DNA from: an uncultured candidate division Zixibacteria bacterium
GTDB taxonomy: Bacteria > Zixibacteria > MSB-5A5 > UBA10806
Length of the DNA: 64,000 bases
Assembly: GCA_963817915.1 (NCBI GenBank)
Contig: CAWFQL010000012.1
Location: forward strand, 512,001-576,000
Direction: 5' to 3'
How positions within the stretch are numbered: position 1 is the first letter of the stretch; every line of letters starts with the position of its first letter. Positions 18,001-24,000 of the stretch are shown here, in pieces. Made by a program: the position numbers.

Positions 18001-21000
18001 ATCGCCTTGTGACGCTGGCCGAAATCATCTTTGTATAACGCTTCGATGGAATCGATTTCTGCCTTATGCGCAGTCTCAATTGAATCTCTTATGGTGTTCC
18101 ATCTGGCCGAAAGATATCCGCGATAAAAATTGATCCCGATTACTCCGCCATTTTTCGCGATAGCCTTAATCTGGTCATCGGTAAGATTTCTATCGTGCGG
18201 GCAGATATTATATACACATGAATGCGAGGCAATGATCGGGTCTTTTGTAATTTTCAAGACCTCTTCAACTGTGGCGGGCGAGGCATGAGAGACATCGACA
18301 ATCATCCCCAATTCGTTCATTTTCCTGACTACTTCACGACCGAAATCGGTTAATCCATGGAATGCCGGCTTAGTATCGGCCGATGATATGCACCAATCGC
18401 TGGAGCCGGTATGAGTCAATGTCATATACCTGACTCCGCGATCGTAATAATGCTTCAGATTGTCAAGGCTATCCGCAATCGCGACACCGTTCTCGATCCC
18501 TATAAAGGCCGCAATTCTGCCGCTCTTGATGATACTTTCTGCTTGAGCCGAGGTTTTGCAGACCGCAATTTTATCGGGATAACGGCTTATTTGCACTTCC
18601 AGCGAATCGATCATTTCATCGGCCAATGGTCGGCATTTGGCCTTAGGCGTATTGGAATCAAGCCAGCAGGCAAATACCTGGAGCTTTATTCCGCCCTCCT
18701 GCAGCCTCGGTATATCCATGTGCCCCGTGGAATCCCTTTTCCCAAAATCGAATCCGCCTTTCATCATTCGCAGTACGGTATCGCTATGCAAATCCGCCAC
18801 CAAAGCGTCATGATGAATTCTTATCGGATCGTTTATCTTGCTGGATCCGGCCAGAATACCTCCTAAGAGAATTAAAACAATTAAAGAAAATCTCTTCATC
18901 ATGTTTTTATACAAATCTAGTCATAAAAATCAAGAGATAAAAACCATTGTTACTGATTGCTACCAACTTCATGCTTCCGAGGCATTTATGATTTATAAAA
19001 ATTGCTCAAAATACTTGCTTATCCATAATATTGTGCTATTATTAATGCAGATTCACTTCCTTGATCTGCACCAGGGGTGGGCGGCCCCGCAACCGCTTAT
19101 ATTTTAGAACTTCATATTTTAATTTTGGCGCTAAACTGATAAGATGATTTTAATTTGGCAGAGGAGGAATGAGACAATAGAGAAATCTGCAATTTGGTGT
19201 TTGTAGTATTTTGGGCCGATTGAAATGAAAGAGGAGAGTTGTCTTATGAAAAAATCCAATGTTACTGTCATGATTATGGCAATTTCAATTGCTGTAATTG
19301 GAATATTTACCGCCAATGCCGCGCCGCCGCTAATCAGTTATCAAGCCAAATTATGCGATAGCAGCGGGAATCCTGTCCCCGATGGCAATTATCAAATGAT
19401 CTTTAGCATCTATGGCGATTCCGTTGGTGGGACACCATTGTGGACAGAGGTCCGTCCCGCAGTTTCAACTTCAAGCGGCTATTTCCACCTTAACCTGGGA
19501 AGCACCGAGCCATGGGATGAACGGAATATGCTGGGGCCATCAACACGATATCTGCAAATTCAGATCGGTAGTATGCCTCCGATGTCACCTCGCACGAAAC
19601 TTACCTCAGTCCCTCAATCCGTATTTACTCAAAGGGTGTCCGGGGATATCGAGACATCCGATAGCAGCCTTACGCTTCAGCGGGGAACACAGGCGGTTCG
19701 ATTGCTAAATGGTCCCGAGACAATAGGACTCGTTATAGAGGATAGGCCAACTGATCTTGTAAACGGTAGGGTCTTCCGTGCCGGTATGGATTCCACCGGT
19801 GTCAATTTCGGATTGGATGGTCCTAATGGCAGCAAGATGATCGAAGCCACTGCTCAGTCCGGCGTTGCCGGCAGGGCTAGTTGGGTGATGTTCAATCCCC
19901 AGCCCGAACCGCCCGGTCATGATCCTTTCAGGCTTTTCGAAGTGAGCACAAATGGTCTTGGCCAGGCCAGCTGGGTGATGTTCAACCCTCAGCCGGAACC
20001 GCCTGGCTCTGATCCGTTCAGGTTGTTTGAAGTCAGTACCGGTGTTGGTGGCGAGGCCAGCATGGTCATGTTTAACCCTCAGCCGGAACCGCCCGGTAGC
20101 GATCCGTTTCTTACATTAAGAACAAATGTCAGTGGCGCAAATTTCTCTATGAACGCACCCCAGGCGAGAGGTGCTGCCTTAGTTAATAATCACCCTCAGA
20201 TAAATATCAGGTGCGATAGCACGGCCAGCAGATTGCTTTTGCAGAGGGGGCGCACTATGGTTGGCGGCCCTTCAGATAGCACCGGATTTTCCATGTATGC
20301 CGATTCTGTCAGCAGCGAAATGAGGTTTTTCAATAACAGTAATCTGCAACTGAAAATTACCTCCAACGCAACCGGGGCGACACTGGGTTTTATTGATGAT
20401 GGCAGCGAGTATATGGGTGTAGAACCGGCCCCGTGGCATGCGGGCGGCGAACTCACAATGAGCGATGCTGCAGGCGGTCCGACGCTGGTGTTATCATCAG
20501 ACGGCATGGCCAGTATTGGAACAGGGAATCATACGAATATTCTAACAATAGCTCAATACTCCTCAACCGATCCTATCGCCGATGCCTGGACTACATACAG
20601 CTCACGCAGATGGAAAACCAACATCGAGCCGTTGAAAAATCCATTATCGAAAGTTATGTCTCTGCGGGGCGTATCATTTGATTGGAAAGAGAATGGCAAG
20701 CACGATATCGGTTTCATCGCTGAAGAAGTCGGCGAAATTGTGCCGGAAGTTGTCGCCTACGAAAAGAATGGAATTGATGCGCAATCAGTCGATTATGCTC
20801 GTCTGACTTCCTTGCTCGTTGAAGCGGTGAAAGAACAGCAGAAAATGATAGACGATCTCAAAGCCGAATTAGTTGATTTGAAAGCGGAAATTAACAAAAA
20901 AGCCGATTTGGGCAAATAAGGGGGTTGCTAATCATGAAAAAGTATTATGTCTTAATGATAATCCTGTTATTTGCATCATTCGCCAGAGCTCAGACTTATC

Positions 21001-24000
21001 GCATAGATTGGTATGTAATCGGTTCTGGCGGCGGTCATTCGCAATCATCTGGATATCAAATTGACGCCACTATAGGGCAGCCGATCGTCGGTTCATCGTC
21101 ATCAGCATCATACATTATCGATGGTGGCTTCTGGGCCGGCGGCGCTCAGGGCGGCGCATGCTCCTATGTCGTCGGCGATGCCAATAACAGCGCCACATTC
21201 AACGGCCTCGATGTTACCTATAGTGTCAACTATTTTCGGGGCGGGGCCGCGCCGCCATATTCCTGCGAATGCACCCCTGGTAACATCTGGTTTGTAGCTG
21301 GCGATGTCAACAACAGTTGTAGTTTCAATGGTCTCGATGTTACCTACATGGTGAATTACTTCAAGGGAGGTTTAAGCCCCAGACCATGCGCGCAATGTCC
21401 GCCGGCGAGGTTTGCCCCAGCTGTATTGCCGATTGTGGAGCCGATACAGAAAACAATCATTAGTGGCTCGAGTGATTAATAAATGTAAAATTTGACATCT
21501 ATTTTGATAAGGCGGCCTGCCTTGGCCGCCTTTTTTATACATAATGATAATTGTTCTTACTTGACATAAAACTATATAATAGTATATTTAACCTATATTC
21601 TTCTGACGGACCCCAGCCGTTGAAGATAATTGTTTTTACAAATTAATATCCATTTTTTGAGGGATATCTTCATCCTGAAAATGAATGAAACAATTTTGCA
21701 AATTATGATCCCAAGCATTATGGCGAATAATCTAATTTTAATACAATCATAAGAAATAAGCGCAAAATATGAATATTTTCAATTTGAAAAAAACCAATTT
21801 TAACGGGAGAGACGCAATGAAAATCGCGAAAACAATTTTACTGACAGTATGTGCATTAGTGGCAATGTACACATTCATTTTTGCCGCTGACGCGGGTAAG
21901 ATCGGTTCTTCGGGTAAGCCGGGAGACGCAATCACCTCGGTGCCGCGCACTTTAACTTATCAGGGAATTCTCAAAAACAATACCGGCCAGCCGGTTGCCA
22001 ATGACACGCTCATGGTCACGTTTAGGATTTTCGACCAATTGGCCGGCGGGACTATCTTCTGGAATCGCGATATCAGCGTTCACACTGATGCCCAGGGGAT
22101 GTTCACCGCATTGCTTCCTGAAATGAACCTGTCATTCGGTAACGACTACTATCTTGAGATGCAGATCGATGTAGCGGGCCCCATGACTCCGCGCCAGATG
22201 CTGACCATGTCTCCTTATGCCGCTCGTTCAGATACTGCGGATTTTGCGGCTAACGCTTCCTCCAACTGGACTGTGAGCAATTCTGTTATTCAGACCAGCA
22301 ACTATTGGGGAATAGCCCGCGGCAATGCTGGCAATGTGTTATTAGGTGATAGCGCTCGTACGATGGTGAATCTCGGCGTCGCCTGTACCACGGGAACCAT
22401 CAGCTATAGTCCATCTTTTTCTACAGTTGGCGGTGGTTTGGGAAATTCTGCCGGCGGCGAATTTGCAAATGTTAGCAGTGGGCATAATAATACAGCCGGG
22501 GGCTCGTCAGCTTCTATCGGAGGCGGTAGTGGCAATAATGCCAGCGGCGGGGCATCCGTGATCGCCGGAGGGTACAGCAATACTGCCGGCGGCCCGAATT
22601 CTACGGTCGCAGGGGGGAATAGCAACACCGCCCCTGGTCAGAACGCTACCGTAGGCGGCGGCGGTAACAATTTTGCTAATGGCAACAACTCCACCGTTGG
22701 CGGGGGATGGTATAACATTACCAACGGCGATTCGAGCTTCGTAGGCGGCGGTCTTCACAATAGTATCCACGGCGTTGGTGGCACAATTGGCGGCGGAAGG
22801 GCAAATACTGTTTCAATGGAATATAGTGCCATTACTGGCGGAGAATTAAACAACGCCAATAGCTATAATGACTTTATCGGTGGCGGTTATGGGAATACCG
22901 TCAATGGTGGCCATAGTGTCATAGGTGGCGGAGGTAATAATATCGTAAATGGCTCCCAAAGCGTGATAGTCGGAGGAAGCCAAAATATCGCTGATTCTTC
23001 AAATTCATTTATTGGCGGCGGAGCATATAATCATGCGTCCGGACACTATAGTACAATCGCAGGAGGGGGGGCTAATAGCGCCTTGGGATCGAGGAGCACC
23101 ATTGGCGGCGGAAGATATAATTCCGCTGGAGATACAGCTTTTGTCGGAGGGGGATCTTATAATAACGCGTCGGGGATAAGTAGTACTATCGGGGGTGGTT
23201 CATCAAATACCGCAAGCGGCCCCAATGCTACCATTAGCGGCGGCCAGAGCAACGCTGCAACCGGGCCGTACGGTACCGTTGGTGGAGGCATACGGTAATA
23301 TAGCCAATGCAAGGTCCGCCATTGCTGGAGGAACTGGCAATATGGCTCTTGAGCAGGAGGTCTCTATTGGTGGAGGGGCTAACAACACAGCCAATGGTTT
23401 TAGAAGCACAATTGCCGGCGGTGCTATTAATACGGCCTCGGGCAATTACAGTATTGTGAGCGGAGGACTCCAGAATAACGTCGGCGGAGCTTTCGCGGGC
23501 GTAGCTTCAGGATGGCAAAACACTGCAGGAGATGCCGCAAGTGATACAGGCGCATTCGTTGGTGGGGGTCGATCCAATTCCGCAACAGGAATGTACAGCA
23601 CAATCTGCGGAGGCAGTGGCAATCTATGCAGTTGGGCAATAGTAGCCGACAGTGGCAGGGGGAGGATAGTAATTACGTAGCAAGATTCCAGTTTGCAATA
23701 TCGGTGGGGGTAGCTATAATCGCGCAACCGGTGATTCGAGTTTCGTAGGCGGCGGCGGCCACAACATTGCCGGCGGAAATAGCAGCACGGTGAGTGGCGG
23801 CCGAAACAATAGCGCAAGCGGCGACGCGAGCACTATCGGCGGTGGTGAAATTAATACTGCGAGTAGCGCAGGCGCTGCAATAGGCGGTGGGGGCGGTAAT
23901 ACTGCAAGCGCTATGTATAGCTATATTGGCGGCGGCGCTGCCAATTACGCCCCAGGTAAATTTGCCGCGGTTAGCGGCGGATGTACCAATTCGGCCACCG

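Follow-up and report, generated by a model that had tools for sequence, protein, structure and literature searches.

Six-cysteine dockerins and T9SS-tagged cohesins suggest a probable surface docking system for peptidases and adhesin-like proteins in an uncultured Zixibacteria genome

The window analysed here, a stretch of 64,000 nucleotides from contig CAWFQL010000012.1 of an uncultured candidate division Zixibacteria bacterium, carries three small dockerin genes, each preceded by a fibre-like gene, together with larger dockerin-bearing proteins. Its features are as follows (positions counted from the first letter of the window).

2..2797, + strand: 3' part of the gene for a beta-helix protein of 1468 aa, with a C-terminal short-linker dockerin
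19225..20919, + strand: fibre-like secreted protein of 564 aa that ends in a Peptidase_S74 chaperone domain (PF13884, E 5e-16), 14 nt upstream of g01777
20934..21479, + strand: g01777, a 181-aa ORF in which an MKK leader and an N-terminal domain of about 50 residues precede a cysteine-rich dockerin, with a short Pro/Ala/Ser tail at the end
20934..20993, + strand: putative Sec-type leader of g01777 (aa 1-20), hydrophobic, with ARA before Q and a model helix at 2-15
20994..21146, + strand: beta-rich N-terminal domain (aa 21-71), conserved and marked by the motifs Y-x-I-D and G-T-I-G-Q-P
21159..21404, + strand: cysteine-rich dockerin (aa 76-157), with six cysteines and two calcium loops of 12 residues, a helix coming after each loop
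21405..21476, + strand: Pro/Ala/Ser tail, hydrophilic and devoid of a hydrophobic anchor; pLDDT about 50
21509..21532, + strand: terminator-like hairpin of 9 pairs, 7 of them G-C, with a T-run
21769..24807, + strand: second fibre-like gene, in three ORFs (21769-23298, 23195-23680 and 24169-24807)
24812..25369, + strand: g01777 paralogue, 73% identical
25535..27001, + strand: FG-GAP repeat protein with a C-terminal cysteine-rich dockerin
27312..29256, + strand: third fibre-like gene, split over two frames that overlap; it lies upstream of small dockerin gene number three
29530..30090, + strand: g01777 paralogue, 73% identical
30262..31569, + strand: LVIVD repeat protein with a C-terminal cysteine-rich dockerin

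The first fibre-like gene and g01777 form a two-gene unit, which the terminator-like hairpin closes. The genes are separated by only 14 nt, and a G-rich ribosome-binding stretch lies between the upstream stop and g01777. This pairing of a fibre gene with a small dockerin gene is kept in relatives. Peptidase_S74 has only two matches in the genome, one of them in the 564-aa protein; the last frame of the second fibre-like gene (24169-24807) carries this domain and abuts the second small dockerin gene. The parts of this second fibre gene form one continuous stretch in relatives (L109, L159). An earlier note on this DNA had described g01777 as little more than a leader and a tag, a description that overlooked its conserved N-terminal domain. 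In this genome the domain occurs in four frames, all with a C-terminal cysteine-rich dockerin, although its monomer model reaches a pLDDT of only 39-51. The 238 relatives of g01777 range from 99 to 317 aa and are all unnamed or annotated as 'hypothetical'.

The module that ends g01777 is a C-terminal tag shared by otherwise unrelated secreted proteins, a view supported by its copy number and position. Using residues 71-170 of g01777 as the query against the genome's own stop-to-stop ORF set (17,323 frames of at least 60 aa), phmmer recovered the module in 64 frames, and two rounds of hmmbuild/hmmsearch in 65. It ends within 55 aa of the C-terminus in 63 of the 65, which bears out the earlier observation; the exceptions are an N-terminal dockerin followed by a Fib_succ_major domain (contig C2, 1990-2760) and a weak half-repeat in C6. 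Forty-two copies have the full 82 columns and all six cysteines; in about 17 the linker is shorter and the cysteines are fewer. The median pairwise identity is 62% over the 42 full copies and 56% over 60 copies, and the maximum is 94%; the earlier figures were 57% and 93%. Pfam recovered the passenger families already reported, namely S8, M14, M6, M1 and C25 peptidases, LVIVD, FG-GAP, SBBP, Beta_helix and Omp28. The hydrophilic tail of g01777 was read alongside the tails of 31 copies.

The module of about 82 residues is, by sequence and predicted fold, one type-I-like dockerin, in which a helix comes after each of two EF-hand-like calcium loops; what it adds to the dockerin core is a long linker and six extra cysteines. 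In the 42-copy alignment, the aspartates at loop positions 1 and 12 are invariant in both loops, asparagine occupies position 3 of the second loop in every copy and of the first in at least 90% of copies, and asparagine at position 9 reaches at least 90%. Pfam Dockerin_1 (PF00404) matches 41 of the 65 frames at E<=1e-3 and 28 of them at or above its 22.9-bit cut-off, more than the 20 counted previously; g01777 alone remains below that cut-off (18.3 bits, E 0.0027, as against 0.003 before). A search of the PDB with a profile of the 42 copies (A2) gives 19 sequences at E<=1; almost all of these are dockerin-bearing chains, as are all six matches at E<=0.002 (best 6kg9_A, E 2.6e-4). Similarly, an AlphaFold model of the module (pLDDT 88, pTM 0.78) places helices at 19-29 and 61-71, directly after the two loops, and every Foldseek match to this model at E<=1 is a dockerin chain, with a TM-score to the target of 0.70-0.83 and a probability of about 1; the E-values of these matches are weak (0.04-0.9) because the domain is small. 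The tag is therefore not "so far unnamed", as the earlier note had it. Nor is it "double-dockerin-like", since two repeats are part of the definition of a dockerin. The term is a misnomer when the module is set beside Clostridium thermocellum Clo1313_0689 (8x39/8x3a; Foldseek ranks 23 and 27), which shares the dockerin fold but consists of two complete tandem dockerins of about 150 residues.

Three disulfides between the six cysteines probably brace the module at its N-terminus, in the linker and at the C-terminal tail. The pairing suggested here is read from co-occurrence: the first two cysteines are lost jointly in 10 of 270 copies and the third and sixth jointly in 5 of 270, with phi values of 0.83 for first-second, 0.69 for third-sixth and 0.41 for fourth-fifth, the last pair following by elimination. 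In a sister family, three of four copies lack exactly the third and sixth cysteines. Alternatively, the CxC and CxxC motifs may form a zinc site.

The earlier note named no partners for the tag; we found candidates for them in the same genome. An iterated profile detects 24 cohesin-like domains in 19 frames, some of which hold two or three. Pfam Cohesin alone matches five places at E<=1, two of them above its cut-off, and the 24-domain profile finds 15 cohesin chains in the PDB at E<1e-3 (best 3ul4_A, 4.8e-10), which assigns the domains to the cohesin family (PF00963) at the sequence level. Two frames combine a cohesin-like domain with the dockerin module, and a scaffoldin-like frame of 710 aa contains an internal Pfam dockerin. 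The T9SS C-terminal domain is present in 14 of the 19 cohesin frames and in none of the 65 dockerin frames. The genome encodes more of these domains than the 114 genes reported before, with at least 150 Pfam matches (150 of 187 candidates scored) and 179 frames by its own iterated profile; the claim that module carriers lack the domain (PF18962, Por_Secre_tail) stood under both searches, at 0 of 65 each. The genome also has PorV-like genes and a gene for the SprA translocon. The genome has only two secretin genes, both in PilM/N/O-type clusters, and no classical T2SS is evident in it. Moreover, cohesin genes often lie near dockerin genes: 9 of the 19 cohesin genes are within 5 kb of a dockerin gene, a number that random sets of 19 (2.7 on average) reach in 0 of 1000 draws and that is inflated by one cohesin-gene island on C18, whose members are not independent; of the T9SS-domain genes lacking a cohesin, 18 of 165 lie as near. 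Dockerin and T9SS domain also replace each other among close paralogues. For 53 passengers of at least 120 aa, the best paralogue is T9SS-tagged in 18, dockerin-tagged in 17 and untagged in nine, with none found for another nine; one M1 peptidase pair with different tags is 66% identical.

In the phylum sample of 121 genomes, the cohesin profile has matches in 117 and the dockerin profile in 86. Four genomes lacking a dockerin-profile match have 12-48 Pfam dockerins each, and one genome (G105) has 15 dockerin matches and zero cohesin matches. Strong cysteine-rich matches are limited to two related families.

We propose, with a probability of about 65%, that these genes serve to display peptidases and adhesin-like proteins on the cell surface by way of a cohesin-dockerin system, in which the six-cysteine dockerin plugs into T9SS-anchored cohesins. 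In this scenario, about 63 Sec-exported proteins (peptidases, adhesin-like proteins of the beta-propeller and beta-helix types, and small proteins resembling adaptors, g01777 among them) would dock in a calcium-dependent manner into the 24 cohesin modules of 19 proteins. The cohesin proteins, most of which end in the T9SS C-terminal domain, would accordingly be those that the type IX system exports and holds on the cell surface. The outcome would be a multi-protein surface assembly with a cellulosome-like architecture and a proteolytic and adhesive content. Because the cohesins occur in the same genome, mostly on proteins of the T9SS-anchored type, this is best read as a surface docking system and not as a new secretion signal; with 19 cohesin-bearing frames at hand, docking is the economical half of the alternative "sorting or surface-docking tag" that the earlier note had left standing. 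For g01777, gene order and the low-confidence N-domain model suggest an adaptor role, in which the N-terminal domain would hold the fibre protein encoded upstream and the dockerin would fix this fibre to a surface cohesin.

A variant of this idea makes the dockerin an indirect ticket for type IX export: in the periplasm, dockerin proteins would come upon the T9SS cargo that bears cohesins, and the folded complex of the two would pass SprA jointly ("piggyback") and arrive on the surface pre-assembled. Such a route would explain how about 63 surface-type proteins manage when they lack any export signal for the outer membrane, why a classical T2SS is not evident, and why T9SS domain and dockerin are freely swapped among close paralogues. 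It would also explain the disulfide bracing, as expected of a domain that folds and binds in the periplasm. T9SS transports folded cargo; to our knowledge, and with no literature search aimed at one, co-export through it has no precedent, and we regard this route as unlikely.

The module could instead be a dockerin-fold calcium-binding domain that does not bind cohesin, acting as a binder of envelope glycan or lipopolysaccharide or as a folding cap stabilised by calcium and disulfides. The cysteine-rich type has no assignable cohesin, genome G105 pairs its dockerin matches with no cohesin match, and the characterised dockerins in the PDB alignments have neither the added cysteines nor the long linker. 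However, the enrichment of cohesin genes beside dockerin genes argues against it, as does the occurrence of both partners throughout the phylum sample. Moreover, the putative contact helices (L-D-V-T-Y-x-V-N-Y-F-K-G-G) are nearly identical in both repeats and recur in the short-linker copies beside cohesin genes on C11 and C18. We therefore consider this reading quite doubtful.

Finally, it is improbable that the module itself serves the T9SS or another outer-membrane translocon as a signal for secretion or sorting: its strict C-terminal position in 63 of 65 frames, its mutual exclusion with the T9SS domain, the choice of one tag or the other by close paralogues and the lack of an evident classical T2SS would fit, but that exclusivity is partly trivial, since a protein has one C-terminus, the module has the helical, calcium-binding fold of a binding module and not the beta-sandwich that T9SS domains have, cohesins to match it are present, and N-terminal (C2:1990), internal (710-aa frame) and cohesin-joined (two frames) dockerins are unlike a secretion signal. 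What the two tags do share is their place at the C-terminus of the same passenger families in the same genome.

The surface docking system that we propose is thus a variant of the established cohesin-dockerin design, with a six-cysteine dockerin and T9SS-tagged cohesins. Like the type I dockerins of clostridial and ruminococcal cellulosomes (PF00404; 4dh2, 4fl4, 5nrk, 6kg9), the module has two repeats of about 22 residues, each a 12-residue EF-hand-like calcium loop plus a helix, the repeats are near-duplicates, as with the dual binding mode, and it sits at the C-terminus of secreted proteins, there enzymes. In contrast to them, it has six conserved cysteines, an 18-residue linker containing C-x-C, a C-x-x-C-P-P end, and G-L instead of S-T at loop positions 10-11; its host is diderm, only 28 of 65 copies reach the Pfam cut-off, and it is carried by peptidases and adhesin-like proteins. 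The system does not qualify as a strict cellulosome, which would have dockerins on glycoside hydrolases and a multi-cohesin scaffoldin bearing a CBM; no glycoside hydrolase catalytic family or CBM occurs among the Pfam matches of the 65 dockerin frames and the 17 cohesin frames scanned.

The closest parallel is the cellulosome-like system proposed, from genomes only, for the cloacimonadotal 'Ca. Stygibacter', as described in passages of PMC8542988. There too, an uncultured phylum has C-terminal dockerins on S8 and C25 peptidases, and a scaffoldin-like cohesin protein carries a conserved C-terminal surface-attachment domain, for which the authors cite a T9SS review. That system has one scaffoldin of 3,755 aa with CBM2/CBM3 and some glycoside hydrolase cargo, whereas here 19 mostly small cohesin proteins accompany about 63 dockerins, among them a cysteine-rich subtype; those passages of PMC8542988 make no mention of cysteines in the dockerins.

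A different likeness concerns the front of g01777. PamT (NF058579) is, in passages of PMC13278184, the proposed tip pilin of the CPR Pam pilus, and in both settings a protein resembling a tail fibre is a central neighbour. In the 62-row family alignment (A4), the leader and first 50 or so residues of g01777 and 61 of 62 relatives match model positions of about 19-78 (best E among relatives 1.8e-9). We rejected PamT membership, as g01777 scores 26.6 bits against a cut-off of 240 and covers only positions 19-78 of 241; it has no Ig-like body, the dockerin standing in its place.

Cohesin-dockerin assembly has mostly been studied in Gram-positive cellulose degraders. Here it would operate in an uncultured diderm phylum and on a large scale, a genome of 3.3 Mb coding for about 63 dockerins and for 24 cohesin modules, with peptidases, adhesin-like repeats and fibres in place of cellulases, and with type IX-anchored sockets. 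In the library searched, as in the earlier search, there was no paper joining Zixibacteria with dockerin, nor did the library have any joining them with cohesin. Ecologically, Zixibacteria would be surface-bound protein degraders whose surface equipment is modular and can be exchanged, and the outer-membrane crossing of dockerin proteins lacking a T9SS tag becomes a concrete, testable problem. Moreover, the six-cysteine dockerin would be a compact form, possibly locked by disulfides, of a protein connector in wide use, and a candidate for orthogonal, more stable cohesin-dockerin pairs. Since the Pfam model misses over half of the copies, a dedicated family model would improve annotation; in public data, about 300 clusters (at 50% identity) match the module at E<=1e-30.

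We extracted 17,323 stop-to-stop frames from the 22 contigs (3.33 Mb) of the genome and searched them with residues 71-170 of g01777, the small secreted protein that carries the cysteine-rich module. phmmer recovered 64 frames and two profile rounds raised this number to 65; in 63 of them the module ends within 55 residues of the C-terminus, and Pfam, run on all 65, found no type IX (T9SS) C-terminal sorting domain in any. The shared C-terminal module put forward in the earlier note thus holds, as do its passenger families, which are those that Pfam gave over all 65 frames. Its counts change: 114 T9SS domains become 150 to 179, and the 20 Pfam dockerin hits become 41 frames with Dockerin_1 at E<=1e-3, of which 28 reach the cut-off. 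Six cysteines occur in the 42 full-length copies, and approximately 17 others are shorter in the linker and poorer in cysteines. In pairwise comparison, the full-length set has a median identity of 62% and a set of 60 copies one of 56%; the highest value is 94%. The sole full copy that is not C-terminal (C2:1990-2760 of this genome) lies right behind the leader and precedes a Fib_succ_major domain. Leaders were judged by eye only, a hydrophobic-leader rule having been dropped for lack of discrimination (45 of the 65 dockerin frames passed it, as did 146 of 300 frames taken at random).

When compared with solved structures, the A2 profile, built from the 42 full copies, matched 19 sequences at E<=1, nearly all of them dockerin-bearing chains, and all six sequences at E<=0.002 were of this kind. 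AlphaFold modelled A2 with a pLDDT of 88 and a pTM of 0.78, placing one helix right behind each calcium loop, and Foldseek against the PDB returned at E<=1 dockerin chains only, with TM to target of 0.70-0.83; the E-values, 0.04 at best, are weak owing to the very small size of the domain. Moreover, positions 1, 3 and 12 of the calcium loops are invariant or nearly so in the 42 copies. Therefore, the module is a single dockerin domain of two repeats with a lengthened linker and six added cysteines, and the former description as 'double-dockerin-like' does not apply, as two repeats make one dockerin.

All six cysteines are present in 185 of 270 copies from this genome, its relatives and public representatives. 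In ten of the 270 only the first two cysteines are missing, and in another five only the third and sixth, the same two that are absent from three of the four sister-family copies; co-occurrence is highest for the first and second (phi 0.83), followed by the third and sixth (phi 0.69). The pairing, read from co-occurrence alone, would consist of three disulfides, 1-2, 3-6 and 4-5, the last by elimination. We also considered that the C-x-C and C-x-x-C motifs could form a zinc-binding site instead; however, the sister-family copies lack one cysteine of each motif, which favours disulfides and makes zinc the less likely alternative. In the literature, the matches listed for dockerins and cysteines or disulfides included no cysteine-rich bacterial dockerin.

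The candidate partners of these dockerins are cohesins. Pfam Cohesin matched five places in the genome, and an iterated profile seeded from these matches detected 24 cohesin-like domains in 19 frames; their profile (A3), run against solved structures, matched 15 cohesin chains at E<1e-3 (best 4.8e-10). A T9SS C-terminal domain ends 14 of the 19 cohesin frames versus none of the 65 dockerin frames. Several frames contain two or three cohesins, and one of 710 aa has, in addition, an internal Pfam dockerin. Nine of the 19 cohesin genes, not fully independent because of an island on contig C18, have a dockerin gene within 5 kb, compared with a mean of 2.7 in random sets of 19, none of which reached nine in 1000 draws, and with 18 of 165 T9SS-domain genes without a cohesin. 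This island (C18:8205-12176 and C18:24957-32397 of this genome) comprises seven genes with cohesins, the majority of which also encode a T9SS domain, and its two-cohesin proteins of ~739 aa have the same length in the related genomes G067, G079 and G085. Complex prediction for the g01777 dockerin with the cohesin of a 1869-aa protein on contig C7 gave a score of 0.01, a value for one of the 24 cohesin modules and without controls, which counts neither for nor against binding. Within the library covered, our literature search found no paper on Zixibacteria together with dockerin or cohesin. In Cloacimonadota, the relevant passages of a genome-based proposal describe S8 and C25 peptidases with dockerins at their C-termini, together with a cohesin-bearing scaffoldin whose conserved C-terminal domain, for which a T9SS review is cited, would attach it to the cell surface (PMC8542988); as far as those passages go, the design is comparable to the Zixibacteria one.

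The proposal that proteins of one and the same kind carry either the dockerin or the T9SS tag gains support from swaps between paralogues. Of 53 dockerin proteins whose passenger measures 120 aa or more, 18 have as their best paralogue (E<=1e-10, coverage of 40% or higher) a protein with a terminal T9SS domain, 17 one with a dockerin and nine one with no tag; for the other nine no paralogue was found. Identity to the T9SS-domain paralogue is 66% for an M1 peptidase, 61% for an M14 carboxypeptidase and 51% for an S8 subtilase with a dockerin. Of the earlier interpretation as an unnamed sorting or docking tag, docking is supported, and 'unnamed' falls because the module is a dockerin. The genome encodes the SprA translocon and PorV-like proteins, and the dockerin proteins have no outer-membrane export signal. 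Only two secretin genes are present, both within PilM/N/O-type clusters, one of which also contains T2SS-E/F-type genes; given the latter, a type II-like export route is possible. The missing signal and the secretin context therefore also leave room for co-export with cohesin-bearing T9SS cargo, which we regard as unlikely. A role of the module as a sorting signal is unsupported.

The g01777 gene starts 14 nt downstream of the preceding gene's stop, with a G-rich ribosome-binding stretch in front, and belongs to the first of three tandem cassettes, in each of which a gene for a secreted, fibre-like protein precedes one for a small protein that combines a PamT-N-like domain with a cysteine-rich dockerin:

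Features of the g01777 region (window positions)
19225-21479: first cassette
20934..21479, + strand: g01777, encoding 181 aa
21509-21532: terminator-like hairpin downstream of g01777
21769-25369: second cassette
27312-30090: third cassette

The earlier view of g01777 as little more than a leader and a tag is at odds with a domain of ~50 residues between the two, which recurs in three paralogues encoded by this genome, of which two lie inside the window; all own-genome carriers of this domain terminate in the cysteine-rich dockerin. The family counts 238 relatives of 99-317 aa, every one unnamed or 'hypothetical', and, of 62 members in the alignment, 61 have a match to the initial ~60 positions of the NCBIfam PamT model (NF058579), far under its cut-off. 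PamT has been proposed as the tip pilin of a CPR pilus which, in the passages of PMC13278184 that concern it, also has a tail-fibre-like protein in its neighbourhood. In the predicted full-length monomer of g01777, the dockerin reaches a pLDDT of 96-98 and the N-domain is poorly modelled (39-51); its best ESM Atlas score, 0.87 to unnamed clusters, is under the meaningful level, and the domain is absent from the best 150 of the module's matches in public representatives. The only two Peptidase_S74 matches in the genome lie in two of the three cassette fibre genes, immediately preceding g01777 in one case and its first paralogue in the other. Similarly, among 18 public loci with a full-length g01777 relative, 11 have an S74-type C-terminus on the same strand within ~120 bp upstream, and 16 have a fibre-like gene within 4 kb upstream. 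We infer that g01777 could be an adaptor tying the fibre protein to a surface cohesin. The second and third fibre-like genes (21769-24807 and 27312-29256) are split into two or three overlapping open frames, whose counterparts run on without a break in the related public loci L109 and L159; the splits may be frameshifts, assembly errors or decaying genes.

Across the phylum, the A2 profile matches 86 of 121 genomes at E<=1e-6 (this one included) and the A3 cohesin profile 117 of 121, and four genomes without an A2 match have 12-48 Pfam dockerins each. Thus, cohesin-dockerin systems are a general feature of the phylum, with the cysteine-rich subtype as an elaboration at clade level. Strong A2 matches (E<1e-25) occur in this genome, in four of the five others of its family and in all four sister-family genomes; the remaining genome of its own family, G080, has a best match of 3.6e-15. 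Since cohesins and dockerins are both nearly universal in this sample, presence and absence indicate no specific partner of the cysteine-rich type. One genome, G105 (97% complete), has 15 dockerin matches and no cohesin match at E<=1e-6. In 1.84 billion public representatives, the module has 4521 matches at E<=1e-3, 1402 at <=1e-10 and 300 at <=1e-30, and the family's named records come from Candidatus Zixiibacteriota bins and from a few bins labelled Ignavibacteria or 'uncultured bacterium'. The bins labelled 'uncultured Ignavibacteria bacterium' (L131, L150, L152, L161, L170 and L173) could be mislabelled or could reflect a broader range of the subtype. Three public representatives, P0020, P0078 and P0001, contain 12, 7 and 3 matched module stretches, respectively, and are tandem arrays, not single tails. 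Elsewhere in the window (10319-15293) lie two neighbouring PPDK_N (pyruvate phosphate dikinase AMP/ATP-binding) genes, the second fused to a nucleotidyltransferase domain.
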